From contig OY970386.1 in the NCBI GenBank assembly GCA_963719465.1, positions 789,789-853,788 on the forward strand: 64,000 nucleotides of DNA, read 5' to 3'. The notes under the pieces were generated by a model that made no database searches, was not told where the DNA came from, and saw only the letters and a program-made list of their open reading frames with translations. The position numbers and the translations under genes are program-made. This document shows, one piece after another, positions 29,156-59,560 of the stretch (positions are counted from its first letter, which is position 1; every line of letters starts with the position of its first letter). The stretch comes from an uncultured Chloroflexia bacterium. GTDB taxonomy: Bacteria; Chloroflexota; Dehalococcoidia; DSTF01; JALHUB01.

Positions 29156-30000
29156 TCACGGGTCCGGGAGCAAGAACTCTATTCTTATCGGCTCGATCAC
29201 GCGATTCCGGACGTGATCCAAAATGGCGAATAGGATATCAGCCAATGGGCGATTCGTTGCTGATGGTCCTTCCTTCAAGACCACTTGCAAGGTAAAGACT
29301 GCATTCATGTTCGCTTTCGCAAAGTCTGCTGCGGCGGCGTTGTCAAATGTAGTATGGAGGATTTCTGTCCCGTCTTCCACAGGACCTGGTTCAATTTCCA
29401 AGGACAAAGGCCGGAGGACGGGATCAAGTGCGTACACCGCATCCCTGATGGTCGACTGGGTGATATGGAGCCGCCTGTGCTTGTCGATGTTCGTAAGCTC
29501 ATCGAGAATCCACAGGGGATGGCTGTGGGGGTCAAGGAGAGGATCTTCCTTCCGCATCTGATATGGTTGCAGCCCCTGGATCACCGCCTGCGCGTGAGGA
29601 TGAACTCCCCTCATTCTGTAAAGGCCGCTATGTGGAGCAGGGTCTCCCTTACGTTTTCCGTTACGTATCTTCTTAAGAAACTCGTCTTCGTCATCAAAAA
29701 TAGGGAAGGCCGTCTGCTTCAACTCCTTGCTGGAGTGCCTCACCGTCAGCGCCGTGATCAGATGGTCAAGGGCCAATCTAGTATTGTAGAGGAACTCACC
29801 GAGGATAACGTTCAGTCGAGGCGGCAGAGGTCGTCTAATCCTCGCTTGACAACTAGGTGCCCTACCTGCCCCACACCGTAGCTCTCGAATTCAATTGGGT
29901 TAGGGTTGTTGTCGCAGAAGGCGTTGATGGCCGCATCAGTCTCCGCCCAGTGCTCTTGCGCTCGATCGAGCTTGACGAGGTAGTCGGTCAAAATCGCCAT
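29156..30000 (-). CDS. hypothetical protein in a low-GC islet (possible HEPN-like Rx4H motif); probably one frameshifted gene
   Basis: ORF 29812..30000 (62 aa) and ORF 29156..29776 (206 aa) lie on the same strand. The latter frame stays open upstream to 29893 (...RLNVILGEFLYNTRLALDHLITAL...), so one indel probably splits one gene. GC here is about 50% versus about 66% in the flanks. I recognise no confident family. Confidence 0.45.
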
Positions 30001-30237
30001 GCGCTGTCCTCAGAACGTGAAGGACGCGGCAGTACAGGAAACCCCGAGGGGCACGAGATTCCTGCCGCCACGCGGGGAGACTTCATACGCCACCTGAAGA
30101 ATTCGGCGAAGCCCTCAACTCGGGCGCCCTCCCGGAGAGGCAGTTCCCCAGACTGGGCCCGCCCCTCCTTGAGGTGATTTTGGCGTTATGTGTAGCCTTC
30201 CTGGTAGCCCGCTGCCCGTCTAACGTCGCTTCCGCGA

Positions 30238-30266
30238 AGGCTGAGGGTTTCAACCCTCAGAACTGT
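30238..30266. repeat. palindromic element CAGTTCTGAGGGTTGAAACCCTCAG (inverted copy), downstream of prmA
   Basis: aaggCTGAGGGTTTCAACCCTCAGaactg is the reverse complement of the element at 59380 and a close relative of those at 59532 and 59682. Confidence 0.75.
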
Positions 30267-30283
30267 CTAATTATCCACATCGA

Positions 30284-31157: not shown

Positions 31158-32275
31158 CTAGCCGCCGAAGGTCTCTTTTACCTTGCCCATGAAGCCCTTG
31201 CCGTCGCGGTGCCCGCCGTCGTGCCCGCGCAGCGACTCGTCGAGCTCCTTCAGCAGCCGCTTCTGCTCTTCGCTCAAGTGCTTCGGCGTCACGACGTTCG
31301 CCGTAACGACCATGTCGCCGCGACCGCCGCCGCGCACGTGCGGCACGCCCTGCCGCTTCAGGACGAACTCGTGCCCCGACTGCGTGCCGGCGGGATCTTG
31401 AGCGGCTTGTCGCCGTCGAGCGTGGGAATCGTCTCTTCGTCGCCCAGAGTCGCCTGCGCGAAGCTCACATCCAGGTTCAGGAGAATGTCGTCGCCGTCGC
31501 GCTTGAACAGCGGGTGCTCCTGCACGGACAGCACGACGTAGAGGTTCCCGCGCCCGCCGCCGTACAGGCCCATCTCGCCCTCGCCGCTGATCCGTATCTG
31601 CGAGCCCTCGTCGACTCCGGCCGGTATCCGCACCTCCAGCTTGCGACTGCGCCGCTCCTGACCTGTACCCCGGCACTGCTCGCACGGCTTGTCGACGATC
31701 CGTCCCTCGCCGCCGCAGCGGTCGCAGGCCGTGACGTTGATGAACTGCCCGAAGATGCTGCGCTGCGTCCGCCGGATCTCCCCGCTGCCGTTGCAGACCG
31801 GGCACTTGCGCGGCTCGCTGCCCGGCTCGGCGCGCAGGCCGTTGCAGCGCGAGCAAGCCTCCTCGCGGCTGATTTCGACCTCTTTCGACGTGCCGAAGAC
31901 CGCCTCCTCGAACGTCAGGGTAAGGCGATAGCGCAGGTCGGAGCCTCGCTGCGGCTGGCGGCGTCTGGAGCGGGCGCCGCCGAAGAAAGCGTCGAAGATA
32001 TCGCCGAAGCCGCCAACGTCGAACCCCTCGAACGTGCGCGCGAAGGGGCTTTCGGCGCCGGCGTGCCCGAAGCGATCGTAAATAGCGCGACGCTCCGGGT
32101 CGGAGAGCACCTCGTAGGCCTCGTTTATCTCTTTGAAGCGCTCCTCCGCGCCGGGCTCCGGGTTGCGGTCCGGATGGAACTTCATCGCCAGGCGGCGGAA
32201 GGCGCGCTTTATATCGTCCTGGCTTGCGTTTCGCGGCACCCCCAGGACGTTGTAGTAATCGAGTTTAGTAGTCAT
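31158..32275 (-). CDS. dnaJ: chaperone DnaJ, frameshifted near 31375
   Basis: J-domain with HPD (KFHPDRNP), G/F region and four CxxCxGxG zinc-finger repeats in ORF 31358..32275. The C-terminal domain (...[38 protein letters not shown]) is in ORF 31158..31856. One G is missing in a ccggccggc run. Confidence 0.85.
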
Positions 32276-32360
32276 AGATAAGCATCGGTTGAATCGGCTT
32301 TCCCGCCGATCAACCTATGATAGCAGATTCGCGACGGTCTTTGGAGGTGCCACGGGAATG

Positions 32361-32384
32361 TAGGGGAGGTCTTTAGACCTCCCG
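32361..32384. repeat. REP element copy
   Basis: GTAGGGGAGGTCTTTAGACCTCCC, read directly. Confidence 0.8.
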
Positions 32385-32424
32385 CGTCTCTTTAGGCCTC
32401 CCACCCTAGGTGCGCCCCCAAATG

Positions 32425-32448
32425 TAGGGGAGGTCTTTAGACCTCCCG
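32425..32448. repeat. REP element copy overlapping the 3' end of the RAYT gene
   Basis: GTAGGGGAGGTCTTTAGACCTCCC. A degenerate half-site (ctctttaggcctccc) lies between this copy and the 32361 copy. Confidence 0.8.
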
Positions 32449-32988
32449 TGCATCCGCCGCATCCGACGCATCGTCGGCAAACGAACCAGAATATGGATAA
32501 GCGTCCGCCTCGTCCACCAGCCCAGCTCTAACTGGATTCTCTCTCACATACGTCCTCACATCCAGCAGGTCTTCTTCCCGTCGTAGCACGTGATCGTAGT
32601 AGCTCTTCTGCCAGAATGGACCGCTGCTGTCTAGCAACTGATTACAGAGGAATCCCGATCTCAGCTTGAAATGATGCACGAAACTCATCACGTCGACGCC
32701 CTCGGCAGCCATAACCACCAGATGCAGGTGGTCGGGCATGAAGCAATACTCCAGGACTTCAACGCCGGATCTCGTGGCACTGTCTGCCAAACAGCTAAGA
32801 CAGATTTCGACAGTTCCTGGGAATGAGAAGGCCCGTCGCCCGTCTTGCACGCGGGCGGTCAGGAAGAAGGCTCCGCCGCTTCGATATACTTCACGTGGCA
32901 GTCTGTTGGGCTTACGTCGACGGAATCCGCAAGAAGCGGGAGGTCTAAAGACCTCCCCTACATCACTCGGACCACCGCCGTCGCGCAT
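32437..32988 (-). CDS. REP-associated tyrosine transposase (RAYT, IS200/IS605-like TnpA_REP)
   Basis: ...GGAFFLTARV...EYCFMPDHLHLVVM (HuH motif) ...FWQKSYYDHVLRREEDL (catalytic Tyr region). The start codon is uncertain because a REP lies inside the 5' end. Its ORF-track start is 2 nt from the leuB stop. Confidence 0.75.
   Translation of the reverse strand: MRDGGGPSDVGEVFRPPASCGFRRRKPNRLPREVYRSGGAFFLTARVQDGRRAFSFPGTVEICLSCLADSATRSGVEVLEYCFMPDHLHLVVMAAEGVDVMSFVHHFKLRSGFLCNQLLDSSGPFWQKSYYDHVLRREEDLLDVRTYVRENPVRAGLVDEADAYPYSGSFADDASDAADAREV
32938..32961. repeat. REP element copy in inverted orientation inside the 5' end of the RAYT ORF
   Basis: GGGAGGTCTAAAGACCTCCCCTAC. Confidence 0.8.
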
Positions 32989-32989
32989 C

Positions 32990-34054
32990 TCAGACCAACG
33001 ACGCCACGAAATCGCCCATCTCCGACGTGCTCATCCCCATCCGGCCCGCGTTCAGCGACTTGATTCGCCCGCTGCCCAGCGCCTTCACCACCGCCTGCTC
33101 GATGCGGTCCGCCGCCTGCTCCTCGCCCAACTCGGCGACCAGCATCTGCACAGCGCCGATGGCCGCCAGCGGGCAGATGACGTCCTGGCCGGTGTACTTC
33201 GGCGCGCTGCCGCCGATCGGCTCGAACATCGATACGCCCTGCGGGTTGATGTTGCCGCCGGCCGCGATGCCCATGCCGCCCTGGATCATCGCCCCCAGGT
33301 CAGTGATGATGTCGCCGAACATGTTCTCGACGACGATGACATCGAACCACTCCGGGTTCTTCACGAACCACATGCACGTCGCGTCAACGTGCGCGTACTC
33401 GCGCCGGATGTCCGGGTAGTCCGCCTCGCCGACCTCGTTGAACGCGCGCCACCAGGTGTCGTGGACGAACGTCAGCACGTTCCTCTTGCCGACGAGGTGG
33501 AGCTGCTTCATCTTGTTGCGCTTTCGCGTCAGGTCGAAGGCGTAGCGGATCGCGCGCTCGGCCCCGAATCGCGTCGTCAGGTGCACCTGCGTCGACACCT
33601 CCTGCGGCGTCCCCTTGTACTGGAAGCCGCCCATGCCGCCGTACAGCCCCTCCGTGTTTTCGCGCACGACCACGAAGTCGATGTCCTCCGGCCCCTTGCC
33701 CTTCAGCGGGCAGTCGACGTTCGGATAAAGCTTGACCGGCCGCAGGTTGATGTACTGGTCGAGCTCGAAGCGCAGGCGAAGGAGGATGCCCTTCTCCAGA
33801 ATGCCGGGCGCGACGTCCGGGTGGCCGATGGCTCCCAGGAAGATCGTGTCGAAACGCCGCAGCTCATCGATGGCCCCATCGGGCAGCGTCTCGCCCGTGC
33901 GCATGTAGCGCTCGCCGCCGAAGTCGAAGGTTGTCGTCTCGTACTTGAAGCCGGTCGCCTGCGCTGCTGCCTCCAGCACCTTCAGCCCTTCCCGCACGAC
34001 TTCTGGGCCCGTCCCATCGCCTGGTATGACAGCTATTCGATGCAACTCCGTCAT
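32990..34054 (-). CDS. leuB: 3-isopropylmalate dehydrogenase
   Basis: IAVIPGDGTGPEV...NLRPV...VRENTEGLY...NMFGDIITD. These motifs and its position in the leu operon support the call. Confidence 0.85.
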   Translation of the reverse strand: MTELHRIAVIPGDGTGPEVVREGLKVLEAAAQATGFKYETTTFDFGGERYMRTGETLPDGAIDELRRFDTIFLGAIGHPDVAPGILEKGILLRLRFELDQYINLRPVKLYPNVDCPLKGKGPEDIDFVVVRENTEGLYGGMGGFQYKGTPQEVSTQVHLTTRFGAERAIRYAFDLTRKRNKMKQLHLVGKRNVLTFVHDTWWRAFNEVGEADYPDIRREYAHVDATCMWFVKNPEWFDVIVVENMFGDIITDLGAMIQGGMGIAAGGNINPQGVSMFEPIGGSAPKYTGQDVICPLAAIGAVQMLVAELGEEQAADRIEQAVVKALGSGRIKSLNAGRMGMSTSEMGDFVASLV

Positions 34055-34102
34055 TCCTCTCTAGTCGTCTCCTTCGCCCTCACGGGGCGACGGCGCCACC
34101 TG

Positions 34103-34270
34103 TCAGCAGCCGGGCTCGCCGAGGTGGCCGCAGCAGCCCTGGCGCGTCCGCAGCCTGATCCAGTAGTTGCGGAACGTCAGCGCCAGCTTCCGATGAACCG
34201 GCAGGTCCGATTCCCGCCAGTTGGTGAAAAAGGCCCCCAGGCTCGGTCGATTCCGCTGTCTCTCGTCCAT
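34103..34270 (-). CDS. small conserved-looking ORF (55 aa, Trp- and Cys-rich C-terminus) between leuD and leuB
   Basis: Translation: MDERQRNRPSLGAFFTNWRESDLPVHRKLALTFRNYWIRLRTRQGCCGHLGEPGC. It starts 7 nt after the leuD stop and third-codon-position GC is about 85%. It is not in the ORF track because it is under 60 aa. Confidence 0.4.
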   Translation of the reverse strand: MDERQRNRPSLGAFFTNWRESDLPVHRKLALTFRNYWIRLRTRQGCCGHLGEPGC

Positions 34271-34277
34271 CCGACCG

Positions 34278-34781
34278 TCACTTCGCTTTCCCGGCGAGTC
34301 GCTCCTTCGTGTACTGCACCAGCCCGCCGGCGCGCATCAGCTCCAGCATGAACGGCGGGTACGGCTTCGCCTGGAACGTCGTGCCCTTCGTCAGGTTGCG
34401 GATCGCCCCCGACTCCAGGTCGACCTCCAGCTCGTCGCCGGCGTTTGTTCCGTCGACAGCCTCGTCGCTCTCCAGGATCGGCAGCCCGATGTTGATGGCG
34501 TTGCGATAGAAGATCCGCGCGAAACTCTTCGCGATGACGCAGCTTACGCCCACCGCCTTGATGCAAAGGGGCGCGTGCTCCCGCGATGAGCCGCAGCCGA
34601 AGTTCGTCGTAGCGACGATCATATCGCCGGGCTGGACGCGCGTCACGAACTCGGGATCGATGTCCTCCATGCAGTGCTTCGCCAGCTCCTGCGGGTCGGT
34701 CAAGTTGAGATAGCGCGCGGGTATTATCGCATCAGTGTCGACGTTGGCGCCGTACTTGTGAACGTGTCCGCGTAGAGTCAT
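34278..34781 (-). CDS. leuD: 3-isopropylmalate dehydratase small subunit
   Basis: [20 protein letters not shown]... Confidence 0.85.
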
Positions 34782-35191
34782 GCCTGCGACTCCTTCTCCA
34801 GAAGCTCCCTGACTGCGGCAACGAATTCCCGTGCCCGCCTGAGTTGCTCGGCAGCCTCTTCGCGAGACACTTCATCCGATAGGGAATAATCGCCCCGCAG
34901 CCGTTCCTCAAAGCCTGCGGCGAGGTATTGCTGTAGCTGCGCGGGCAGAAGGTGATTCTTTACAAACTCATTACTGAAGCTCGCGATGACGGTGGCGTGC
35001 CGCTTAAAACGCATGCCCCGAGTCAGCAGGACGGCCGAAGCCATGTAGAACATGGCATAATAGGCTTGCGACACAGAAGCGGCAAGATACGAGTCCTCCA
35101 AGAGCCGCGCTGCTGCCCCCAGGCTCTGCTCGGCACGTCGAACCAGGATTGGAATCTCTGCCCTCAAGCGACCTTCCTGCCTTCTCTCCAA
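34778..35191 (-). CDS. HEPN-domain protein, partner of the upstream minimal nucleotidyltransferase
   Basis: A 137-aa protein with the motif [19 protein letters not shown] and an Rx4-6H-like signature. It overlaps the MNT gene by 28 nt and the leuD start by 4 nt. Confidence 0.7.
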
Positions 35192-35493
35192 ACCTCTTCA
35201 AGAAACAGCTCTTCACCCTTGCCGTAACGCTCTGAACTGATGGGCTGCGCCGAAACATAGACATTGTGCTTCAACGTTAGTTCGGACGATATCTCCACAA
35301 TCCGCCAGAGCTCCTTCGAGAAGCCTTCATAGCCGTCCAGCACGACGAGATAGTCGATATCCGACTCCGGGCCGGCGTCGCCGCGGGCCCACGAACCGTA
35401 CAGGATTAGCGATCGCAGCCGCGATCCGTAGACACGTCGCAGGCCGTCCGCCAGCTCCTTGCTGATCGCGTCTACGTCTTCTGCCGAGATCAC
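35164..35493 (-). CDS. minimal nucleotidyltransferase (MNT) of an MNT-HEPN module
   Basis: VISAEDVDAISKELADGLRRVYGSRLRSLILYGSWARGDAGPESDIDYLVVLD carries the GS...DxD nucleotidyltransferase motif. Its GTG start (35493..35491) overlaps the leuC TGA stop (GTGA). Confidence 0.7.
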   Translation of the reverse strand: MISAEDVDAISKELADGLRRVYGSRLRSLILYGSWARGDAGPESDIDYLVVLDGYEGFSKELWRIVEISSELTLKHNVYVSAQPISSERYGKGEELFLEEVWREGRKVA

Positions 35494-36752
35494 TTGATCA
35501 CCTCGTCCGGCCCGGCCAGCCGTCCGGCGACCGCGCTTGCCGCCGCAACCGCCGGATTCGCCAGATAGACTTCCGACCGCACGTGCCCCATCCGGCCCGG
35601 GAAGTTGCGATTGCTCGTGCTCACGCAGCGCTCGCCTTCCGCCAATATGCCCATATAGCCGCCCAGGCAGGGGCCGCAAGTGGTCGTCGAGACGGCGCAG
35701 CCCGCCTCCGCGAACGTCTCCAGCAGCCCTTCCCGCAGGGCGTCGAGGTAGACATCCGTCGAAGCGGGAACGACAATGCACCGCACGTTCTCGTGCACCC
35801 TTCGACCGCGCATTACCGACGCCGCCAGCCGCAGGTCCGCCAGGCGTCCGTTCGTGCAGCTGCCGATGAACACCTGGTCAATCTCCACGCGCGGCGCCTT
35901 GCTCAGCGGCACCGCGTTCGCCGGCGACGACGGCAGCGACACCATCGGCTCCAGCGCAGACACGTCGTACTCGTGAACGGCCTGATAGACGGCGTCGGCG
36001 TCAGGCTGGTACAGCTTCCATTCGCGCTTGGCCCGCGGCCGCACGTAGTCCAGCGTCACGTCGTCAGGCGTCATCAGACCGGCCTTGCCGCCGGCTTCGA
36101 TCGCCATGTTGGAGATCGTGAAGCGACCTTCCATGCCCAGCTCCGCCAGCGCCTCGCCGCCGAACTCCATCGCGCAGTAGAGCGCGCCGTCGACGCCGAT
36201 GTCGCCGATGGTGAACAGGATAACGTCCTTTCCTCCTACCCAGCGGCTCAGCTTGCCATAGTAGACGAACTTGATCGTCGGCGGGACGCGCATCCAGATG
36301 TCGCCGGTCGCCATCGCGCAGGCGATATCCGTGCTGCCCATCCCGGTCGCGAAGCAGCCGAGCGCGCCGTAAGTGCAGGTGTGCGAATCGGCGCCAACAA
36401 CAACGTCGCCGGGCAGCACCCAACCGTGATCGGGCAGGAGGACGTGGTCGACGCCGGCGCGCCCCTGCTCGTAGTAGACCGCGCCCTGGTCGAGGGCAAA
36501 GCGGCGCATGACCTTAGCGTTCTCGGCGCTCTGGATGTCCTTGTTCGGTATGAAGTGAGACGGTATGAAGGCCACCCGCTGCGGGTCGAAGACGCGCTCC
36601 ACACCAAGCTTGTGGAACTCCTGGATCGCCAGCGGCGCCGTCACGTCGTTCGCCATGACGAAGTCGACGCGCACGTTAACCAGCTCACCAGGCGAAACCG
36701 CGTCGCGGCCGCAGTGGGCAGCGATTATCTTTTCACCAAGCGTCATTCCCAT
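35490..36752 (-). CDS. leuC: 3-isopropylmalate dehydratase large subunit
   Basis: Aconitase-family motifs (VGADSHTCTYGALG, IGSCTNGR, CGPCLGG). Confidence 0.9.
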   Translation of the reverse strand: MGMTLGEKIIAAHCGRDAVSPGELVNVRVDFVMANDVTAPLAIQEFHKLGVERVFDPQRVAFIPSHFIPNKDIQSAENAKVMRRFALDQGAVYYEQGRAGVDHVLLPDHGWVLPGDVVVGADSHTCTYGALGCFATGMGSTDIACAMATGDIWMRVPPTIKFVYYGKLSRWVGGKDVILFTIGDIGVDGALYCAMEFGGEALAELGMEGRFTISNMAIEAGGKAGLMTPDDVTLDYVRPRAKREWKLYQPDADAVYQAVHEYDVSALEPMVSLPSSPANAVPLSKAPRVEIDQVFIGSCTNGRLADLRLAASVMRGRRVHENVRCIVVPASTDVYLDALREGLLETFAEAGCAVSTTTCGPCLGGYMGILAEGERCVSTSNRNFPGRMGHVRSEVYLANPAVAAASAVAGRLAGPDEVIK

Positions 36753-36767
36753 GTTCTTCCCCGTCCT

Positions 36768-37229
36768 CTAGCTCCCGACGTAGTCCTTCAGGCAGATGAC
36801 CCGCGGCATCGCCCTCGGCGTGCCGTCCCGAATGAGCGCGGGCCGTCGCCGCAACGCTTCAACGATGCGCTGCCAGTCGCCGTCGTTCGTGATCGTTGCG
36901 TCGCAGCCGGCCGCCGCGCCCGTCGCGACGATGAGCGCGTCCGGCACCGGTAACCCCTCCGCCCGGACCACTGCTGCCTGCAGGGCGACCGGGCGGGACA
37001 CTTCTAGCACCGCCAGGTTGGCCGTCTGCTCCAGGAACTCCATTATCTCATCAACCGCGTCGAGATCGTTTTCCCTGATCGGCTTGACCAGCAGCTCCAG
37101 CTGGCAGATTGACGATACGACCGCTTGCAGCTCTCCCTTGTCTATCAGCTCGAACGCCGCTTCCATGAGGTCCGCATACGGGCGGCGGTCCTCCAGGTAG
37201 TAGATGAGGGCGTTGGTGTCGAGGTTCAC
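36768..37229 (-). CDS. vapC: PIN-domain toxin (VapC-like)
   Basis: VNLDTNALIYYLE... is a PIN N-terminus, with acidic residues spaced as in VapC. The alternative upstream start at 37286 would overlap vapB. Confidence 0.65.
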   Translation of the reverse strand: MNLDTNALIYYLEDRRPYADLMEAAFELIDKGELQAVVSSICQLELLVKPIRENDLDAVDEIMEFLEQTANLAVLEVSRPVALQAAVVRAEGLPVPDALIVATGAAAGCDATITNDGDWQRIVEALRRRPALIRDGTPRAMPRVICLKDYVGS

Positions 37230-37252
37230 CCTCCCGCACCCTCTGAGAGCGT

Positions 37253-37597
37253 CTAGGAATTGAGCTTCCCCTCGCGGTCTTGCCAACTATCCCTCTCTTT
37301 ACGGACGTATTCGTCTATTTCTTCGACGTTTGCGCCGTAGACACCCCGCAGCCGCCCGCGGTAGTGCTGCACCCAGTTCCTGGGGCGCGGCTTCAGGACG
37401 ATCTTGCTGTCTTCGAGGCGCACAGTCAGCCTATCCCCGGGCCGCAGTCCGAGCTGGCGAACTGCCGCCACGGGCAGGGTGATCTGGTTCTTGCTGGATA
37501 TCTTTGTCACTGCCACTTCCGGCACCCCTTCAGCCGCCGTGGTCAGGTATTCCAGAACGGCCTCTCTTACTTTACTACCTCCGTGTTCCTTTGTCAA
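37253..37597 (-). CDS. vapB: AbrB/MazE/SpoVT-family antitoxin (VapB-like)
   Basis: [25 protein letters not shown] is a swapped-hairpin beta-barrel DNA-binding motif. It overlaps the leuA 3' end by 23 nt. Confidence 0.65.
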
Positions 37598-39188
37598 GGG
37601 GCCTTCTCCTTTGTTTCTTGCCAGATACCTTGGTTTTTCGCTCCATCGCCAATTGCGCCTGGCCCTGTACCTGTGGCATGCGGTTTAGGGCGTTCATCAG
37701 CGCCTTCGCCGCCGCCACGACGATGTCCGTGTCCGCGCCGCGCCCGACGTAGGTGTTGCCGTCCGCCTGGACCCGCACCAGCACCTCGCCCAGCGCGTCG
37801 ATCCCGGCCGTGATGCTCTTCACCGAGAACTCAAGCAGCTTGTTCGGCACGCCGACGACGCTGTCGATTGCCTTGAAAGCGGCGTCGACCGGTCCTGTGC
37901 CCGTCGACGTTCCGACGAGCTCGCGCTCGCCCGGCGCCTTGATGCGCACCGTCGCCGTCGCGACGAGCTGGTTGCCGCAGGAGACCTGCAGCAGGTCGAG
38001 GTGGTATGTCTCCTCGACCGTCCGCAGCTCGTCACCCATCAGCGCCTCGATGTCGCGGTCGTCGATCTCTGCCTTCTTGTCAGCCAGCTGCTTGAAGTCG
38101 GCGAAGGCGCGCGCCAGTTCCTCGCCGCTGACCTCGTAGCCGAGCGCCCGCAGCCGCTCCCGGAAAGCGTGCCGACCCGACAACTTTCCCAGGACGAGTT
38201 CCGCGCCGCCGGAGGGAAGGCCGATCTCCCGCGCGTCCATGATCTCGTACGTCTCGCGCATCTTCAGGACGCCGTCCTGGTGGATGCCCGACTGGTGCCG
38301 GAAGGCGTTGCCGCCGACGATGGCCTTGTTTGGCTGAATCACCATCCCGGTCAGGTCGGAGACGAGACGGCTCGTGCGGTAGAGCTCCTTGGTGTTGATG
38401 TTCGTCGTTACGCCGTAGGTGTCGCGGCGCGTCCTCAGCGCCATGACGATCTCCTCGAGCGATGCGTTGCCCGCCCGCTCGCCGATGCCGTTGACGCAGC
38501 ATTCGATCTGCCGGGCTCCGGCCCGAACCGCCGCCAGCGAGTTGGCCACCGCCATGCCCAGGTCGTCATGGCAGTGCACGGACACGACCGCCTTGCCGAT
38601 GTTCGGCACCCTCTCGAAGATGCTGCGGATGAATGCCGCAAACTCCTCCGGCGTGCTGTAGCCGACGGTATCGGGTATGTTCACCGTCGTCGCCCCCGCC
38701 TCGATAACCTGCTCGACCATCTGGTAGACGTACTCCGGGTCCGACCGGCTGGCGTCCATGGGGCTGAACTCCACGTCGGAGACGTACCCCTTCGCCCGCG
38801 CCACCTGGGTTCGCGCCATCTCCAGCACCTCGTCGCGGTTCTTGCGAAGCTGGTGCGCCATGTGGATGTCCGAGCTGGACAGGAATACGTGGACGCGCGG
38901 CTGCGCGGCGCCCTTGACCGCGTCCCAGGCGGCGTCGACGGCCGACGGCGTCGCGTGCGCCAGGCCGACGACGACCGAACGCTTTATCGCCCCCGCAATC
39001 GTGCTCACGCACTCGAAGTCGCCGGGCGACGCAATCGGAAACCCCGCTTCTATAACGTCTACCCGCAGCCGTTCGAGCTGGCGCGCTATCTCCAGCTTGT
39101 CGGCGATGTTCAGCGCCACGCCGGGCGACTGCTCGCCGTCGCGCAGCGTCGTATCGAAAATGATTACCTTGTCTGCCATTCTGCTCAA
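37575..39188 (-). CDS. leuA: 2-isopropylmalate synthase
   Basis: [16 protein letters not shown]...[17 protein letters not shown]... with a C-terminal regulatory domain. Confidence 0.9.
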
Positions 39189-39457
39189 CCTCCTTTATAT
39201 TCCTGCGATCTCGACAACTCGGCTCGGCCCTTCCCCTCGTTCAGAGGAAGGGCTATCGCAGGTTGAGCAAATACAGACTCCGTCTCACCATCTAAGTCCT
39301 CGTAGTCCCACTTTTCTCAACGCTCGCATCGCGCAACAACCGCTCCGCGTTCTGCCGCGAAGCCAACGTCTATCTTTCCCACCCGCCCGCCCGCAGCGGA
39401 TTTCTGCAATCCGGGGCACGGCCCCAGACCCCCAGCCGCCGAGCGGACAGGACGAAT

Positions 39458-40456
39458 CTATTTCTTCTTCTGGAGCCAGCTCATCATCCCACGAAGCTCC
39501 GCGCCCACCTCCTCGATGGGATGTTCCGCGTTCTGACGCTTCAGCGCCCGGTAGTGCGGCCGGCCCACCTGGTTCTCCAGCAGCCATTCGCGGGCGAAGC
39601 TGCCATCCTGTATCTCCGTCAGTATGTCCTCCATCGTCTCGCGCACGCAGTCGTCGATGACCCGCGGCCCGCGCGTGTAGTCGCCGTACTCCGCCGTGTC
39701 GCTGATCGAGTAGCGCATGTAGCCCATGCCGCCCTCGTACATCAGATCGACGATGAGCTTCAGCTCGTGCATGCACTCGAAGTAGGCGATCTCCGGCTGG
39801 TAGCCCGCCTCGACCAGCGTGTCGAAGCCGGCCTTCACCAGCTCCGTCACGCCGCCGCAGAGGACGCACTGCTCGCCGAAGAGGTCCGTCTCCGTCTCCT
39901 CTTCGAACGTCGTCTCCAGCACGCCGGCGCGCGTGCAACCGATGCCCTTGCCGTACGCCAGCGCCACCTCTTTCGCCTTGCCGCTGGCGTTCTGCTCGAC
40001 GGCGACGAGCGCCGGTGTGGCGCTGCCCTCCGTGTAGAGGCGGCGCACCAGGTGGCCCGGGCCTTTGGGCGCGATCATCGAAACGTCAACGTCCTTCGGC
40101 GCGACGATCTGACCGAAGTGGATGTTGAAGCCGTGCGCGAACATCAGCGTCTTGCCCGCCTTCATGCTCGGCGCTATCGCTTCGCGGTAGACGGCCGCCT
40201 GGTTCTGGTCCGGCACGAGCATCATGATAACGTCCGCGGCGGCAGCGACCTCGGCGGCCGTCTTGACCGTCATGCCTGCAGCTTCCGCCTGCTTCCACAT
40301 CTCGCTGCCCGGCAGCTCCGCGACCAGCACCTGGCAGCCGCTGTCACGCAGGTTCTGGGCATGGGCGTGCCCCTGGCTCCCGTAGCCGATAATGCCGATC
40401 ATCTTGCCCTGCAAAAGGCCGAGGTCCGCGTCCTTGTCGTAGTAGATTGTTGCCAT
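39458..40456 (-). CDS. ilvC: ketol-acid reductoisomerase
   Basis: From [12 protein letters not shown]...[18 protein letters not shown]. The ORF-track N-terminal extension of 34 aa was discarded. Confidence 0.9.
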
Positions 40457-40591
40457 TGAAGTTCCTTTCTTCAGTCGTTTGTCCAAATCACGTTCAGCGT
40501 TCTCGGCGGGCGGACCGAGGTCCTCCCTAACATTTGCTACATCCTTAGCAGATAACACATCAGCCTGTCGAGCGCGTACTGCTCGCGGTCA

Positions 40592-41008
40592 TCACTTTGC
40601 CGTCTTTTTCGCCCCTGCCTTTGCCTTCGCCTTCGCCTTCGCCAGATTGTAATCCACAGCGGAACGCACCAGATTCCTCAGTTCGATCTCCTTAATCTTT
40701 TCGTCTTTGACATAATCGATGGTCCGCCATTTTTTGCCCGCAAGCCCGTTGTTGTAGAGCTTGTCCGGGTCGGCGACACTCGCGCCTTCATAGAACGTCA
40801 ATTTCACTTTGTCTTTGAAAGCATTGGCGATACAGACTATTCCGCCGTGAGACCATACCGGCGTGCCCATCCATTTCCATTCCTCAACTATCTCTGGGTC
40901 AGCCTCACGGATAATCCGTCGAATGCCAGCGAACGTCTTGCCGCGCCAGTCGGTAAGTTCCGCCACCAGGCTGTCTATCAGTTCACTTGCACCCATGTTC
41001 TTCTCCAC
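40592..41008 (-). CDS. DUF1801 (YdhG-like) domain protein, low-GC insertion between ilvN and ilvC
   Basis: WKWMGTPVWSHGGIVCIANAFKDKVKLTFYEGASVADP matches DUF1801, with a KAKAKAKAGAKK tail. GC is about 50% against about 66% around it. Confidence 0.7.
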   Translation of the reverse strand: MEKNMGASELIDSLVAELTDWRGKTFAGIRRIIREADPEIVEEWKWMGTPVWSHGGIVCIANAFKDKVKLTFYEGASVADPDKLYNNGLAGKKWRTIDYVKDEKIKEIELRNLVRSAVDYNLAKAKAKAKAGAKKTAK

Positions 41009-41029
41009 TAGCGCGTTTCTTCTCCTTCC

Positions 41030-41598
41030 TCACATGAGGCTGCCGACACGCGGCTTCCCCTGCCCGGCCGGCCGGTAGCGACGCAATCCCGCGCCTTCCC
41101 CCTCGACGGTGATCGCGGCGCGACCCCGCGTTACGGCCACCCGTCCGGTGCGCGCCAGCTCGCGGATACCGTACGGCTTGAGCATCTCGAAAGCGGCGTC
41201 CACCTTATCCTCGGTGCCGGTGATCTCGACAACGACCGTGTCCGGCGAGGCGTCGATAATCTCGCCGTGGAAGATGTCGACGATCTCGATGATCGCGCCG
41301 CGGTTCTGGTCGTTCGCGTTCACCTTCATCAGCGCCAGCTCCCGCGTCACGATCTCGTCCTCCGCCAGGTCGCTGATCTTGACGATATCGACGACCTTGA
41401 AGAGCTGCTTCGTTACTTGCTCGACTTCGCTTGCCGCGCCGCCGAGCACGAACGTCATGCGCGACAGCCCCGCGATCTCGCTGTGCCCGACAGTCAGGCT
41501 CTCGATGTTGAAGCCGCGCTGCCGCCACTTGCTGACGATCCGATTCAGAACGCCGGGCTTGTTCTCGACGAGCGCGACTATCGTGTGTCGTTGGTCTT

Positions 41599-41602
<4 letters not shown>
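41030..41602 (-). CDS. ilvN: acetolactate synthase small (regulatory) subunit
   Basis: [39 protein letters not shown] is an ACT domain. The ATGA overlap with the ilvB stop sets the start; the upstream part of ORF 41030..42301 is shadow of ilvB. Confidence 0.85.
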
Positions 41603-43317
<1,715 letters not shown>

Positions 43318-43636
43318 AGTCGAAACCCCTTTAGCGTAATGCGTCCAAGGTGACGCGGTTCGAAACGAGTTGGGAGATTCTGGGTTTCCCGCCTGAGCGG
43401 TAGGGGCGCTGCCTACGATAGCGCGAGCAGCGCCGGCTCGCCGAGACCCAGGATCCCGCGGGCAAGCGAGCCTTCGCCCAGCGGAAGAGCGCGTAAGGGG
43501 AGCAATACGGCGCGGTCTCGCGCGACGAGATAGCCGACCACGCCGGCCCGCGTCGTCACCGAGACCGCTGACGCTCCTTGCAGAGGAAATGTCGCAGAGC
43601 TATGCATGCTTCTATTCTCGACTCTGAGTGGCTCTA

Positions 43637-43876
43637 AGAAAAGACCCGTCCCAAAGGGATCCCATGGGACGGGACCGTACCACCCTTCTTGTCGCCTGAG
43701 GCGACCGGTTTCAGCGCGTTAACGGTCGCTTTCCGGCCGGACCTGGCGAAATCGCTCAGTCCGGCGGCTCCGGGGCGAGTTCAGGCTCTTCGTGTCGCCG
43801 GCTCTCACCATTCCGCCGGCTCTCTGAGACAGGAAGCTGGCCTTACTACTCCCCATCACGGCCTTTGTCTTATGTG
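43637..43876 (-). promoter_or_regulatory. T-box riboswitch leader upstream of the ilv-leu operon (candidate Leu specifier CUC)
   Basis: Minus strand: a GA-motif start (GAUGGGGAGUAGUA), a CAGAGAG AG-box, GAACUCG in a specifier-like position, and the T-box sequence AAGGGUGGUACGG. It ends with the terminator CCCGUCCCA-UGGGAUCCCUU-UGGGACGGG plus UCUUUUCUU. About 330 nt remain before ilvB. Confidence 0.55.
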
Positions 43877-43882: not shown

Positions 43883-43911
43883 AGTATACCGGCCGCGCAA
43901 CCCCTTGTCAA
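43883..43911 (-). promoter_or_regulatory. sigma70-type promoter (TTGACA, 17-nt spacer, TATACT) for the ilv-leu T-box leader
   Basis: Minus strand reads TTGACAaggggttgcgcggccggTATACT. Confidence 0.65.
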
Positions 43912-44132: not shown

Positions 44133-44441
44133 TCACGGGACCGTGGTAACCAGCAACTCACGGCTGCTCTCCCAGAAGCCAAACCCAAAACGTTCGAAGA
44201 TCTGCTCGCGTCCGAAGAGGCCGACGTAGAGAGGGTTGGATGGAAGCTGCTGGAGAATGACAGGGCAATCCACCACCACGCCCAGGAATTCGATTGTTGC
44301 CTGATACTTGTAACCCACGACGGGAGCTTTTCCTCCTGCCGTACCAAGCGAAACTGGCTGGCCCGAATCCCAGGACGTGAGGCCGAGAAGGGGGTAGAGA
44401 TCTTCTCTCAGGGTCAGATACGACGCACCCGTATCGAACAA
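44133..44441 (-). CDS. retropepsin-like (clan AA) aspartic protease domain protein
   Basis: MFDTGASYLTL... has the D-T-G-A-S catalytic motif. An in-frame stop lies only 16 codons upstream, so the N-terminus may be truncated or mis-framed. Confidence 0.55.
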   Translation of the reverse strand: MFDTGASYLTLREDLYPLLGLTSWDSGQPVSLGTAGGKAPVVGYKYQATIEFLGVVVDCPVILQQLPSNPLYVGLFGREQIFERFGFGFWESSRELLVTTVP

Positions 44442-44585
44442 GAGAGGAGTGAGACCTTGTTCCCACCCGACGCCAACAGGTTAATGGTTAGGAGGGGGAG
44501 CCATATAGGTTGACCGGAGACCTGAAAAAAACTGATAGCGCGTTCAAAGTCCTTCGAGGGCATATAACCCTTCTCGTGTAGACCT

Positions 44586-45035
44586 TTAGGGGTGGTCTCG
44601 GTTGGAGAACGCTGTGTGCCAAACGACAGGGTCTGCCGGAATCTGAGTAATGAAGGGAGTCACGCCCTCCAGATCTGCCGTTGCACAGATCAGGGTGACA
44701 ATATCGGGGGCCGAAGCAATAACCTGGTGATCGACGATCGCAACCCACTGGCCACTGTATCGAGCGCGAAGATCATCGAGGTTCGCGCTTAACCATTCCA
44801 GTACTCCCGCCGCAGCAGGTACAGATTGAGAGGCGCGTATATTCGCCACATGCTCCGGGGGGACCAGACCCTCAGCGCCAACCTGCCAGTATTTCACCAT
44901 CACATCGCCCTGCTCCGTCACGTACCATTCAACGCCGAACGACTCCAACTGTCGTAGGATATCTTTAACCGGTAGGCCGCTCGTGACTAGCGATTCGATG
45001 ATGTCTTGTGTGCTGGTGCTTGACGAGACGTTCAT
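44586..45035 (-). CDS. DUF5678-like domain protein
   Basis: C-terminal GQWVAIVDHQVIASAPDIVTLI resembles the DUF5678 core. It overlaps the upstream gene by 4 nt. Confidence 0.5.
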   Translation of the reverse strand: MNVSSSTSTQDIIESLVTSGLPVKDILRQLESFGVEWYVTEQGDVMVKYWQVGAEGLVPPEHVANIRASQSVPAAAGVLEWLSANLDDLRARYSGQWVAIVDHQVIASAPDIVTLICATADLEGVTPFITQIPADPVVWHTAFSNRDHP

Positions 45036-45376
45036 TTGGAGCCTTCCGGCCGAGCCTCAATAGCCCCCTGAGTGCGAGTCCTAAGAATCTCACCGATGTT
45101 AGCGGCGTGGGAGATGCTCACCGTGATGGTAGCCCGAAGGCGCGTTCGGACCAGAGTCATCGTCCCGGTTGGCCCCGGCGGGCCGGGGATGGTTTCGTAG
45201 AACTGGAGTACAATCTCGTTGCCAGTATTTAGGACTTGCGCAATGTCGGAATAAAGGGAGATGGCATCCGGCGGCTGTTCAAAGACCCGCTGAGCCTGGT
45301 GAAGCTCGGGCTGCTGGGTTTGAGCTGGCTGTTCACCCTGAGTCATGTGCTCCCTCCTCGGTGGAGAGCATAGCAT
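45032..45376 (-). CDS. DUF3467-like protein
   Basis: ...ISLYSDIAQVLNTGNEIVLQFYETIPGP... fits the DUF3467 pattern (YSN...EFxLDF). Confidence 0.5.
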   Translation of the reverse strand: MLCSPPRREHMTQGEQPAQTQQPELHQAQRVFEQPPDAISLYSDIAQVLNTGNEIVLQFYETIPGPPGPTGTMTLVRTRLRATITVSISHAANIGEILRTRTQGAIEARPEGSK

Positions 45377-47677: not shown

Positions 47678-48026
47678 CCTCCGATCCGACTTCTCGAATC
47701 TGCCGTTGCCGGTTTCACCACTGGCTCGCCGAGGGCCTCGGTGACCATGCGACAGGCTCGAAGCCCATCGCCACGCCCCGCGGGGGGGACACGCCCTCGG
47801 TTCAACGCCTCAACAGACAGTAGCTTCTCTGGGAGACAATCTGCCTCCTCACACAGGAAAACGGCCGCCGCGAGCCGCCGTTACAGCCGCCGCGGCCGCC
47901 CGTCGAATCTACGGCAGCGTTTTTCACGCTTTCTTCACGTTCTTCGACTGCGATTCACGGCGACCGCACTTGGCGAACCTATGCTGAAGGGTCGGCGAGT
48001 CATCAAGAAACGAAGGAGTTAGAGAA

Positions 48027-48371: not shown

Positions 48372-50210
48372 CTACTTCTGCCGGCGCCTCTTCGCGTACC
48401 ACCCGCCGACGGCAACAGTCGCCAGAACCATCGCCACTATGGCCAAGCCGGTAAGCTGGGCGACCAGCCCCGGCACGTTGATTCCTAGGGGACCGATGCC
48501 TGAGGCGGCTGCCCCAAAGCCGGCAACGTCCGGCGCTTCCGCGATACCGCCGACGGCAGCCGGCCCCGGGGTGGGAGTGTCGGTCGGTGTAACCGTCGCA
48601 GTACTCGTACCCGTAGCCGTGGGGGTGGGCGTTGGGTTGGACGGGTCTTCAATCACCGATACGCTGTCATACCCCGAGTTCGTCACGTAGATGCGGTTCG
48701 TGTCGGGGTTGACGGCCACGCCCAAGGGGCCACCCCCGACCGCCACGGTGGCGACGACCGCGTTGCTGTCGCCGCCGATGACGGAGACGTTGTTGCCGTA
48801 GTAATTCGTCACATAGATGCGATTCGTGCTGGGGTTGACGGCCACGCCCCAGGGGTAACTGTAGCTCCCGACCGCCACAGCGGCCACGACCGTGCTACTG
48901 GCGCCGTCGATCACGGAGACGTTGTTGCTGGTGTAGTTCGCAACGTAGATTCGGTTCGTGTTGGGGTCGACGTCAACGCCGTCGGGGTAACTCCCAACCG
49001 CTACGGGGGTGGCGACGACCGTATTGCTGGCGCCGTCGATGACGCAGACGCTGTTCTCGTCATCGTTCGCCACGTAGATGAGGTTCGTGGTGGGGTTGAC
49101 AGCCATGCCCTGAACCGCCCCCCCAACCGCTACGTGGTCGACGACCGTGTTGTTGGTGCCGTCGATGACGGAGACGTTGCCACCGCCCGTCACGTAAATG
49201 CGGTTCGTGCTGGGGTTGACGGCCACGGCGCAGCCCCAGCCCGGTACGGTGGCGACGACGGTGTTCCTTGTGCCGTCGATGACGGAGACGTTGTTGTACG
49301 TCACGTAGATGAGGTTCGTGGTGGGGTTGACAGCCGCGCCGCAGGAGGCAGACCCCGCCTCTACGCTGGCGACGACGGTGTTGCTTGTGCCGTCGATGAC
49401 GGAGACGGTGCCGTCGCCCCAGTTCGTCACGTAGATGAGGTTCGTCTTGGGGTTCACGGCCACGCCCCAGGGCCAATGCCCGACCCCTACGGTGGCGACG
49501 ACCTTGTTGCTGGCGCCGTCGATGACGGAGACGTTGGGGCCGTTGGGGCTGTACCAGCACGGCACGTAGATGAGGTTCGTGTTGGGGTTAACGGTTACGA
49601 CCCCGGGGCCGCTCCCGACCGCTACAGTGGCGACGACCGCGTTGCTGGCGCCGTCGATGACGGAGACGTTGTTGTCGTTGAAGCTAGTGACGTAGATGCG
49701 GTCCGTGTTGGGGTTGACGGCCACGCCGTCGGGGTAACTCCCGACCGGTACGGTGGCAACGACCATGTCGCTGGCGCCGTCGATGACGGAGACGCTGTTG
49801 CCGCCATAGTTCGCCACGTAAATGCGGCCCGTGTCGGGGTTGACGGCTACAGCCCTGGGGCTACTCCCGACCGCCACGATGGCCACCACGGTGTTGCTGC
49901 CGCCGTCGATGACGGAGACGTTTCTGCTGCCCCAGTTCGCCACGTAGATGAGGCCGGTGTTGGGGTTGACGGCCACGCCCTCGGGACTGTGTCCGCCCGG
50001 GGCTGTTCCGATGGTGGCGATGACGGTTGGGTCGCCGGCGGCTGCGCGGGCGCCGGGTGCCGGCCCCCGCAGGGCAAGAGCGCCCACCACTATCGCAAGC
50101 GCCACTGCCCCGGCCAGTCCCGCAACCGCCAATCTGGGAACGATTTCAGAGCGCATCATGCACCTCCGGAGGATATGAGTGCCACCACCCTGGCGGGGAT
50201 GGCGCAACAT
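48372..50210 (-). CDS. YVTN-family beta-propeller repeat protein with PT-rich linker and C-terminal TM/GGWYAKRRRQK anchor
   Basis: About 11 tandem copies of the 40-residue unit (YV[AT]N.....VSVIDG.SNTVVATV.VG..P.GVAVNP.TNRIYV) follow a signal peptide. The C-terminus reads ...VGGIAEAPDV...TM helix...GGWYAKRRRQK. Confidence 0.85.
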   Translation of the reverse strand: MLRHPRQGGGTHILRRCMMRSEIVPRLAVAGLAGAVALAIVVGALALRGPAPGARAAAGDPTVIATIGTAPGGHSPEGVAVNPNTGLIYVANWGSRNVSVIDGGSNTVVAIVAVGSSPRAVAVNPDTGRIYVANYGGNSVSVIDGASDMVVATVPVGSYPDGVAVNPNTDRIYVTSFNDNNVSVIDGASNAVVATVAVGSGPGVVTVNPNTNLIYVPCWYSPNGPNVSVIDGASNKVVATVGVGHWPWGVAVNPKTNLIYVTNWGDGTVSVIDGTSNTVVASVEAGSASCGAAVNPTTNLIYVTYNNVSVIDGTRNTVVATVPGWGCAVAVNPSTNRIYVTGGGNVSVIDGTNNTVVDHVAVGGAVQGMAVNPTTNLIYVANDDENSVCVIDGASNTVVATPVAVGSYPDGVDVDPNTNRIYVANYTSNNVSVIDGASSTVVAAVAVGSYSYPWGVAVNPSTNRIYVTNYYGNNVSVIGGDSNAVVATVAVGGGPLGVAVNPDTNRIYVTNSGYDSVSVIEDPSNPTPTPTATGTSTATVTPTDTPTPGPAAVGGIAEAPDVAGFGAAASGIGPLGINVPGLVAQLTGLAIVAMVLATVAVGGWYAKRRRQK

Positions 50211-59379: not shown

Positions 59380-59408
59380 GCAGTTCTGAGGGTTGAAACC
59401 CTCAGCTT
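59380..59408 (+). terminator. intrinsic terminator-like hairpin after gyrA (palindromic element family 2)
   Basis: CAGTTCTGAGGGTTGAAACCCTCAGCTTTA, a 7-bp GC-rich stem followed by a T-tract on the plus strand. Confidence 0.6.
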
Positions 59409-59531: not shown

Positions 59532-59560
59532 GGTTCTGAGGGATGAATCCCTCAGCTTTT
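59532..59560 (+). terminator. second copy of the terminator-like hairpin (inside tandem repeat copy 1)
   Basis: GGTTCTGAGGGATGAATCCCTCAGCTTTT. Confidence 0.55.

Follow-up and report, generated by a model that had tools for sequence, protein, structure and literature searches.

Chromosomal toxin-antitoxin (TA) modules are usually seen as mobile and patchily distributed, with uncertain functions. How do such modules come to lie inside a leucine biosynthetic operon, and are they passing insertions or lasting parts of it? This question was raised by a stretch of 64,000 nucleotides from an uncultured Chloroflexia bacterium (GTDB lineage Chloroflexota; Dehalococcoidia; DSTF01; JALHUB01), positions 789,789 to 853,788 of contig OY970386.1 (assembly GCA_963719465.1); this whole stretch is called the window below. 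Its minus strand carries an ilv-leu operon in the order T-box, ilvB-ilvN-(DUF1801)-ilvC-leuA-(vapB-vapC)-leuC-(MNT-HEPN)-leuD-(orf55)-leuB-(RAYT with REPs). The genes in brackets are additional to the seven core genes, MNT stands for minimal nucleotidyltransferase, and RAYT for the tyrosine transposase associated with repetitive extragenic palindromes (REPs). In a preliminary description, the locus was read as a landing pad with a selfish or accessory insert at nearly every gene junction and with its TA modules expressed under the T-box.

It is likely, in our judgement, that the locus is an ilvBNC-leuACDB T-box operon of GC-rich Dehalococcoidia in which two two-gene modules, VapBC between leuA and leuC and MNT-HEPN between leuC and leuD, have long been resident. 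Here, two subfamilies are tied to single junctions, and both stand behind a riboswitch of known signal, uncharged tRNA-Leu. The locus thereby offers a setting for asking what such modules do and how they persist in essential operons, and it also bears on how operon junctions become cargo hot spots in streamlined genomes. No prior description of the arrangement was found in the literature on TA genes with leuC/leuD, T-box leaders or Dehalococcoidia.

Organization of the ilv-leu operon and its leader

All seven core genes scored above the NCBIfam equivalog cut-offs, and every additional gene had the same orientation as the operon (Table 1). The GC content at third codon positions (GC3) was 0.59–0.82 in the additional genes versus 0.85–0.91 in the core genes, with the exception of orf55 (0.86). 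The PIN, AbrB/MazE, NTP_transf_2, HEPN, DUF1801 and Y1_Tnp domains assigned earlier all passed the thresholds of the profile searches, and the T-box leader was recovered as well. In the Rfam alignment, its specifier was CUC, a Leu codon, directly after the GAA of the Stem I specifier loop, and an intrinsic terminator closed the leader. The Leu specifier and the terminator hairpin indicated a transcription-attenuating, tRNA-Leu-sensing leader, and the T-box is thus predicted to terminate transcription and to sense uncharged tRNA-Leu. No second leader or riboswitch was found across the whole operon with Rfam at permissive thresholds.

For comparison, 181 related loci were fetched (denoted by L numbers), most of which were metagenome-assembled genome (MAG) or metagenome contigs. 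The LeuC relatives in species-representative genomes were Dehalococcoidia or other Chloroflexota MAGs, and a T-box was also present upstream of ilvB in L005 and L056. The closest recovered loci, L081 (NCBI GCA_936421135.1) and L082, shared 95% LeuC and 97% LeuB identity with the window and had the order ilvN-ilvC-leuA-vapB-vapC-leuC-leuD-orf55-leuB-RAYT-dnaJ-prmA-rsmE. Compared with them, the window contained three extra blocks of low GC3, namely DUF1801 (~453 nt), MNT-HEPN (712 nt) and a ~1.2-kb block between prmA and rsmE.

An open reading frame (ORF) of 64 aa, rich in Leu, Val and Ala and without a family match, was found at 43413–43607 (minus strand), in the ~320 nt between the T-box terminator and ilvB. 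It could be a chance ORF or a leader peptide.

VapBC between leuA and leuC

The pair between leuA and leuC had the sequence features of a type II VapBC module. The toxin gene encoded a PIN domain whose four acidic residues (D23, E64, D116, and D135) were invariant in 21 homologues, and the gene of the DNA-binding antitoxin lay upstream and overlapped it by 34 nt, an overlap kept in L081, L085, L093, and L097. The N-terminal extensions of VapB (~29 aa) and VapC (~19 aa) were both conserved.

The genome scan placed this VapBC subfamily between leuA and leuC in L002, L011, and L056, and look-ups placed it at the same junction in L081/L082, L085, and L093–L099; in over 30 loci, vapB orthologues occupied the equivalent position. 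When 5.8 billion proteins were searched with VapC (E ≤ 1e-8), only 26 clusters were returned, and the three of them that were looked up (78, 68, and 53% identity) were all located between leuA and leuC. Among the 78 loci recovered with a VapC profile in a metagenome scan, all 19 whose VapC was at least 44% identical had leuA and/or leuC as neighbours. Another seven, more distantly related, had leu genes on their flanks as well, some of them in genomes with a different type of LeuC (~35% identical), and the remaining weaker matches had no leu genes alongside. This distribution suggests that VapBC is a long-term resident of the leuA/leuC junction.

The alleles of the module were strikingly diverged. 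VapC of the window was just 39–40% identical to that of L081, despite the 95% identity of LeuC. Synonymous divergence (dS) was 1.15–1.2 over vapBC versus 0.45–0.77 over the flanks, and the ratio of nonsynonymous to synonymous divergence (dN/dS) was 0.22–0.48 for vapC and 0.1–0.5 for vapB, vapC, and HEPN together; all dS and dN/dS values in this study were calculated with NG86. Nucleotide identity was 53–63% over vapC and recovered sharply to 89% at the start of leuC. This trough, together with the high dS and the purifying selection, fits old alleles that were exchanged by recombination via the flanking genes while their function was kept.

MNT-HEPN between leuC and leuD

The MNT protein contained the motif GSX10DXD, reading GS-WARGDAGPES-DID, and its HEPN partner was a PF05168 protein with a conserved Tyr in the stretch RLRGDY. 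The nearest solved relatives of both were found in PDB 9xbd (chain A for HEPN, 1e-16; chain E for MNT), for which no describing paper was found in the literature. The R..DY of HEPN aligned with the same motif in 9xbd chain A, and both the reading of the sequence and this alignment revealed no RX4HXY and no His in the corresponding stretch. RX4HXY is the motif defined for the HEPN protein of type VII HepT-MntA (PMC7641770; PMC11586414). Membership in type VII was rejected on this ground and because HEPN matched PF05168 rather than PF01934 or PF08780; moreover, MNT reached 28.2 bits with the type VII MntA equivalog NF047752, whose cut-off is 60. The adjacent PF01909 gene with GSX10DXD and PF05168 gene with a Tyr and no RX4H corresponded to Class II HEPN/MNT (Yao et al., 2020), for which no biochemical study existed in 2020 and the TA nature was untested (PMC7641770). 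No paper on the biochemistry of Class II HEPN/MNT was found in the literature after 2020. Thus, the TA label given in the preliminary description is unproven for MNT-HEPN, and evidence is needed before Class II MNT-HEPN pairs are annotated as TA systems.

The MNT-HEPN genes are fitted into the operon by shared codons. The GTG start of MNT and the TGA stop of leuC share GTGA, the MNT stop and the HEPN start share TTGA (given the HEPN start at 35167), and the HEPN stop and the leuD start share ATGA; the first and the last of these had been noticed before and were read directly here. In L081/L082, leuC and leuD overlap directly as AAATGACC. The empty site reads CTGAAATGACC and the occupied site reads ATCAAGTGATCTCGG...GCAGGCATGACT, which indicated that the cassette begins exactly at its own GTG, giving leuC a new stop, and that HEPN ends on the old ATGA. 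The bases shared at the borders of the cassette were the xTGA start/stop overlaps only.

The HEPN subfamily was rare. Only five clusters were found among 5.8e9 proteins at E ≤ 1e-10, and four of them, as well as the cluster member P0126, were looked up. All adjoined leuD with 4-nt overlaps, and they adjoined leuC too wherever the contig reached that far. Further alleles of the pair were found in L001, L115, and L121 (MNT 61–62% and HEPN 46–49% identical). The junction was empty in L081, L082, L002, L093, L094, L097, and L106, so that occupied and empty alleles alternated among close relatives. In comparison with L085, dS was saturated over MNT-HEPN versus 0.63–0.65 over the flanks; dN/dS was 0.19 for HEPN, and dN was 0.18 for MNT, again with saturated dS. 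These data suggest that MNT-HEPN belongs to the leuC/leuD junction. Both modules have diverged much more quickly than the flanking genes and yet stay under purifying selection.

Expression of the two modules

In the preliminary description, the modules were thought to be expressed under the T-box, and the gene overlaps were taken to imply translational coupling. For MNT-HEPN, the overlaps leave no space for a separate promoter, so its expression must come from the leu transcript, and they fit a putative translational coupling. A consensus scan of the minus strand found no terminator-like site between the genes of the operon, so read-through from the T-box promoter is still expected. The co-orientation of the inserts agrees with T-box control, but vapBC has a predicted promoter of its own.

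This prediction rests on a sigma-70-like motif, TTGACA-17-TAAAGT, at the 5′ end of vapB. The exact motif recurred at the equivalent site in 26 loci, 13 from genomes or assemblies and 13 from metagenomes, and a single unrelated match was found elsewhere in 2.37 Mb. Its 17-nt spacer varied freely, and diverged lineages kept TTGACx-17-TAnAnT, that is, the −35/−10 architecture with other bases. The codons that hold the invariant bases are seldom used in the core genes (ACA 7%, AAA 12%, TTG 7%, GTA 5%, and AGT 3% of their families). The conserved positions at rare synonymous codons made it unlikely that coding constraint alone caused the conservation. Hence vapBC probably has its own promoter, and its control by the T-box is probably not exclusive. 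The preliminary description had expected insulated inserts to show promoters and terminators of their own, and half of this was found: a predicted promoter for vapBC, but no terminators.

The same motif affects the start of vapB. The longest ORF, from TTG 37597, overlaps leuA by 23 nt, as described before, and an alternative form of 87 aa starts at GTG 37516; the overlap therefore hinges on which start codon is chosen. If the promoter is used, transcripts would start near 37562 and VapB would be made from GTG 37516, making the overlap irrelevant. Either reading of the start may nevertheless hold, since the upstream open frame is also conserved as protein. At the other end of leuA, the start is most likely ATG 39179 rather than an upstream TTG. 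Compared with L002, L011, and L056, LeuA has a C-terminal tail extended by ~15 aa.

DUF1801, orf55, and the REP-RAYT element

The other additional genes had different histories. The DUF1801 cassette (~40563–41015, about 453 nt) had no counterpart in the orthologous spacer between ilvN and ilvC in L081 or in any of the 181 fetched loci, and a degenerate REP-like sequence lay beside it. A gene private to this genome points to a recent gain. A repeat search found no flanking terminal or direct repeats, target-site duplications or recombinase genes at the DUF1801, VapBC, and MNT-HEPN cassettes, and a transposon or integron as their vehicle was rejected as no flanking repeat family was present.

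The preliminary description had taken the 55-aa ORF after leuD for a Cys-rich insert. It has just three Cys, and its family comprises more than 600 homologues of ~55 aa with RPSL..NW..SDLP...CCG..GEPGC at the C-terminus, for which there is no Pfam model. In Chloroflexota, the homologues usually lie directly after leuD (L002, L011, L043, L071, L081–L083, L086, L093, L097, and L103), in L103 within an otherwise clean operon; in the Actinomycetota MAG L100, the homologue precedes an aldehyde dehydrogenase gene. With a dN/dS of 0.11, orf55 is a native conserved small gene rather than an insert, and it flags an unannotated protein family linked to leuD.

The RAYT gene was likewise no recent arrival. 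Its only canonical start is an ATG 1 nt past the leuB TGA, so it abuts the leuB stop as described earlier, with the correction that the 5′ REP lies inside its reading frame. It has the HUH motif as HLH (...PDHLHLVV...) and the catalytic Tyr in YYDH. The REP sequence GTAGGGGAGGTCTTTAGACCTCCC occurs in four copies in the window versus none expected, three of which flank or overlap RAYT, and the inverted arms at 32422–32448 and 32937–32963, which bracket the gene, are 100% complementary. With the RAYT model passed and inverted recurring REPs on both sides, the element belongs to the REP-RAYT systems. RAYT is syntenic in L081/L082, where the frame likewise opens directly behind the leuB stop and spans the 5′ REP (with a GTG start in L081). 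Against the closest relative, its dS of 0.66 is like that of its neighbours and its dN/dS is 0.19. The synteny and flank-like dS indicated vertical inheritance with the operon. In most relatives (L002, L005, L095, L103, and many others), leuB is followed by a citramalate-synthase-like leuA paralogue, which is missing from the window (32250–32990) and from L081/L082; there, REP-RAYT and then dnaJ follow instead. RAYT-like genes of 30% identity were also found near the operon end in L043 and L056.

Gene turnover at operon junctions in Dehalococcoidia

The junctions were surveyed in 80 genome loci by counting the loci in which neighbouring tblastn matches lay 150 nt or more apart. Such gaps were found at leuA/leuC in 28 of 51 loci, at leuC/leuD in 28 of 50 and at leuD/leuB in 11 of 40, and they were scarcer at ilvN/ilvC (4/29) and ilvB/ilvN (2/33). 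The difference between leuC/leuD and ilvB/ilvN gave a Fisher p of 1.7e-6, computed on loci that are not independent. Seventeen Dehalococcoidales loci carried an MgtC-family gene (~133 aa, PF02308, best 1e-40) at leuA/leuC, among them L006, L009, L017, L020, L021, L026, L030, L040, L044, L046, L049, L058, L059, L063, L066, and L070; this gene is a second, unrelated long-term resident of that junction.

Other cargo at the junctions comprised HicAB, DarT-Macro (DarTG), GIY-YIG, Mrr-like, GNAT, DsrE, PNPOx-like, MGMT-like, metallo-beta-lactamase-fold, SppA, and acyl-CoA dehydrogenase genes. The ilvC-leuA junction, whose spacer in the window is strongly folded (Table 1) and matched no Rfam family, held in relatives an IS200-like Y1 transposase (L081 at 1670–1996, L085, and L043), ferritin-like genes (L043, L091, and L094) or GyrI-like genes (L085 and L091). 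Cargo ORFs of at least 100 aa were co-oriented with the operon in a ratio of 77:17, and the cargo varied even between neighbours on the LeuC tree. Gene turnover at the operon junctions thus extends across the class Dehalococcoidia. The idea of leuC/leuD as a defence island was dropped, as PADLOC applied to 139 junction ORFs gave DarTG twice and a few candidates.

Origin and maintenance of the modules

Two long-resident modules could be expressed and maintained as follows. The T-box-gated transcript would read through every cistron, and vapBC, with probably the downstream leuC-leuB, would be transcribed both by this read-through and from the internal promoter, which VapB presumably autoregulates. 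MNT-HEPN would be made from the leu mRNA, its translation coupled to that of leuC and leuD via GTGA, TTGA, and ATGA. Both modules might persist because their loss must be codon-precise to keep leuCD expressed, and the loss of VapBC would be further penalised by TA addiction. Alleles would be swapped, gained, and lost by homologous recombination through the conserved leu genes, and such exchange would leave alleles hyper-divergent and the modules present in some close relatives but absent from others. The DUF1801 gene would be a recent, genome-private addition of the same habit, and the REP-RAYT element would be domesticated, passed on vertically, and expressed as the last cistron.

The landing pad of the preliminary description, that is, independent, recent selfish or accessory insertions that are tolerated and expressed only by T-box read-through, accounts well for DUF1801, which is private and of low GC, for the absence of MNT-HEPN from the closest relative L081, for the low GC3 of the cassettes, for the very diverse cargo at leuA/leuC and leuC/leuD across Dehalococcoidia, and for the recent insert in a second operon, at prmA/rsmE. 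Nevertheless, we regard it as unlikely for the operon as a whole, and the term suits only DUF1801 and the variable cargo of Dehalococcoidia. To speak of a selfish insert at nearly every junction is an overstatement. Random landing would scatter the VapBC and MNT-HEPN subfamilies, and their close relatives were found only at their own junction in many lineages; orf55 and RAYT were no recent inserts; the traces expected beside inserted cassettes, target-site duplications, terminal repeats or recombinase genes, were missing; and the conserved promoter-like motif speaks against control by the T-box alone. The synteny comparison proposed in the preliminary description thus sorted the inserts into a lineage-private gene (DUF1801), junction-specific modules (VapBC and MNT-HEPN), and inherited genes (orf55 and RAYT). 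Conversely, the modules might have been domesticated as regulators of leucine supply: VapC and HEPN would act on ilv-leu mRNA or tRNA-Leu, a VapB-controlled promoter would set basal leuCDB expression, and T-box induction upon starvation would raise module dosage and slow growth. The long-fixed position, purifying selection, and intact PIN site are as expected under this explanation, as are the conserved motif directly upstream of vapBC-leuCDB, the codon overlaps joining MNT-HEPN to leuC and leuD, and the Leu-specific T-box conserved in relatives. However, many close relatives do without one or both modules, and a VapC of 39–40% identity beside a LeuC of 95% is more like the dynamics of conflict or addiction, and we think this explanation improbable. 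We consider it quite unlikely that VapBC and Class II MNT-HEPN are co-opted parts of a leucine-starvation circuit of this Chloroflexota clade, in which the VapB-controlled promoter would provide T-box-independent leuCDB expression and read-through upon a shortage of tRNA-Leu would raise toxin dosage. Growth would then be matched to leucine supply by the action of the PIN and HEPN proteins on tRNA-Leu or the operon mRNA. If true, this would be a natural case tying the role of a chromosomal TA module to one defined metabolic signal. Finally, most comparison loci are MAG or metagenome contigs, and GC-rich DNA gives many spurious ORFs, so assembly chimeras or chance ORFs were considered. Such an artefact is extremely improbable: the profile E-values were 1e-9 to 1e-17, the genes are under codon-level purifying selection, a protein of 129 aa (P0121) that is 99% identical to the window HEPN over the shared length is encoded on a 2.31-Mb contig, and the same arrangement in many independent assemblies (NCBI, JGI, ENA, and Logan) already refuted it.

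Several points weigh against the long residence of the two modules and its proposed mechanism. VapBC is missing from L005, L012, and L103, and MNT-HEPN from L081, L002, L093, and L094, so each module is dispensable. In L001, whose LeuC is 92% identical, the gene just upstream of leuC (39–308) is a different ORF of 89 aa without a Pfam match instead of vapC, which indicated that the leuA/leuC junction has changed its occupant too. Even in relatives, the GC3 of the cassettes is low (0.55–0.76), which is odd for long residence and may reflect repeated import from an outside pool. The junction context of VapC was read for part of the 26 clusters, the comparison loci are not phylogenetically independent, and the LeuC neighbour-joining tree is too weak at depth to settle whether the two VapBC-bearing clades are sisters. 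The promoter and terminator calls are consensus scans, and the motif lies within the conserved ORF of the VapB N-terminal extension, where part of its conservation could be coding. The Class II HEPN has neither an RNase motif nor published toxicity (PMC7641770).

Comparison with known systems

The locus combines features of several known systems. The ilv-leu operon of Bacillus subtilis (ilvBHC-leuABCD) is under a tRNA-Leu T-box, and the operon in the window resembles it in gene set and order and in its single 5′ T-box with a CUC specifier and an intrinsic terminator. Here, however, leuB is last, three junctions carry extra genes (DUF1801, VapBC, and MNT-HEPN), leuD is followed by a conserved small gene, the operon ends in a REP-RAYT element, and a second promoter-like motif lies inside it. 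REP-RAYT systems consist of a Y1 transposase-like gene flanked by inverted REP hairpins, and the element here is like them in its single-copy gene, its inverted REPs, and another REP copy elsewhere in the window; in contrast, its frame is separated from the leuB stop by 1 nt and includes the 5′ REP, and it would be the last cistron of a biosynthetic operon. Chromosomal TA modules have been tied to starvation or to the stabilisation of gene arrays, as in relA-mazEF and the Vibrio superintegron cassettes. A similar co-transcription with, or position among, host genes and a possible link to starvation or anti-deletion could hold here, but these modules lie at fixed junctions inside a T-box biosynthetic operon in a whole clade, with no integron features.

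VapBC has the layout of other type II modules, with an AbrB/MazE-fold antitoxin gene upstream of and overlapping the PIN toxin gene and a promoter-like motif just upstream. This subfamily, in contrast, is not scattered or mobile, and it stands at leuA/leuC wherever the context was readable. MNT-HEPN follows Class II HEPN/MNT (PMC7641770; PDB 9xbd) in its GSX10DXD MNT followed by a PF05168 HEPN with a Tyr, but 4-nt overlaps lock it between the genes for the two subunits of a single enzyme, and it is restricted to that junction. With type VII HepT-MntA (PMC7641770; PMC11586414), it shares the MNT-then-HEPN layout, the nucleotidyltransferase motif, and a Tyr that could accept AMP, and it differs by the lack of RX4HXY, the PF05168 domain, and an MNT under the MntA cut-off.

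Table 1. Positions in the window of the features of the ilv-leu operon, in the order of transcription.
Feature	Position	Strand	Evidence and remarks
Operon promoter, sigma-70-like, TTGACA-17-TATACT	43883–43911	−	11/12 consensus matches; 15 nt upstream of T-box leader
T-box leader	43662–43868	−	RF00230, 98.2 bits vs gathering score 93; model positions 1–219
Intrinsic terminator of T-box	43636–43673	−	Hairpin CCCGTCCCA/TGGGACGGG, then U-tract TCTTTTCTT; read from sequence
ilvB, acetolactate synthase large subunit	41599–43317	−	TIGR00118, 751 bits
ilvN, acetolactate synthase small subunit	41030–41602	−	NCBIfam equivalog; ATGA overlap with ilvB stop
DUF1801 gene	40592–41008	−	PF08818, 2.8e-16; GC 0.525, GC3 0.64
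ilvC, ketol-acid reductoisomerase	39458–40456	−	NF004017, 557 bits
ilvC-leuA spacer	about 39180–39460	−	269 nt; minimum free energy −125 kcal/mol, z = −4.0
leuA, 2-isopropylmalate synthase	37575–39179	−	NCBIfam equivalog
Promoter-like motif TTGACA-17-TAAAGT	37569–37597	−	10/12 consensus matches; at vapB 5′ end
vapB, AbrB/MazE-type antitoxin	37253–37597	−	PF04014, 2.6e-12; TIGR01439
vapC, PIN-domain toxin	36768–37286	−	PF01850, 2.7e-13
leuC, isopropylmalate isomerase large subunit	35490–36752	−	TIGR02083, 633 bits
MNT, minimal nucleotidyltransferase	35164–35493	−	PF01909, 1.1e-9; PADLOC PDC-S09, 1.7e-29
HEPN	34778–35167	−	PF05168, 2.6e-17; 129-aa gene call; longest ORF 34778–35191
leuD, isopropylmalate isomerase small subunit	34278–34781	−	TIGR02084, 258 bits
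orf55	34103–34270	−	No family match; C-terminus CCG..GEPGC; GC3 0.86
leuB, 3-isopropylmalate dehydrogenase	32990–34054	−	NF002898, 497 bits
RAYT, REP-associated tyrosine transposase	32437–32988	−	NF047646, 98.3 bits vs cut-off 80
5′ REP GTAGGGGAGGTCTTTAGACCTCCC	32931–32963	−	Inside RAYT reading frame
Two 3′ REP copies, inverse orientation	32357–32448	−	First contains RAYT TAA stop

Other features of the window

The insert between prmA and rsmE (29156–30268, minus strand) lies within the otherwise conserved dnaJ-prmA-rsmE order. It is ~1.2 kb long with low GC3, is absent from L081/L082, and contains ORFs of 62 and 206 aa, the latter overlapping the rsmE start by 4 nt. The habit of junction cargo thus extends beyond the ilv-leu operon. 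At the edge of this insert (30237–30268), there is a palindrome, CTGAGGGTTTCAACCCTCAG. Three tandem units of 150 nt at 59383–59826 each contain a palindrome of the same family, CTGAGGG(T/A)TGAA(A/T)CCCTCAG, a second REP-like family distinct from that of RAYT.

Three co-oriented genes of low GC3 lay immediately upstream of the operon promoter (44133–45376, minus strand): a 114-aa gene; a DUF5678 gene (PF18929, 7e-6), which has a 4-nt overlap with the former; and a gene for a retropepsin-like aspartyl protease (PF13650, 2.5e-5). Searches of Pfam, NCBIfam, and PADLOC returned nothing for the 114-aa gene or for the 62- and 206-aa ORFs at prmA/rsmE. At 47698–47821 on the minus strand, a c-di-GMP-II-GAG riboswitch aptamer was detected (RF03169, 48 bits vs gathering score 40), and at 48372–50210 on the same strand, an ORF of 612 aa consists of about nine or more diverged repeat units of 126 nt (42 aa).

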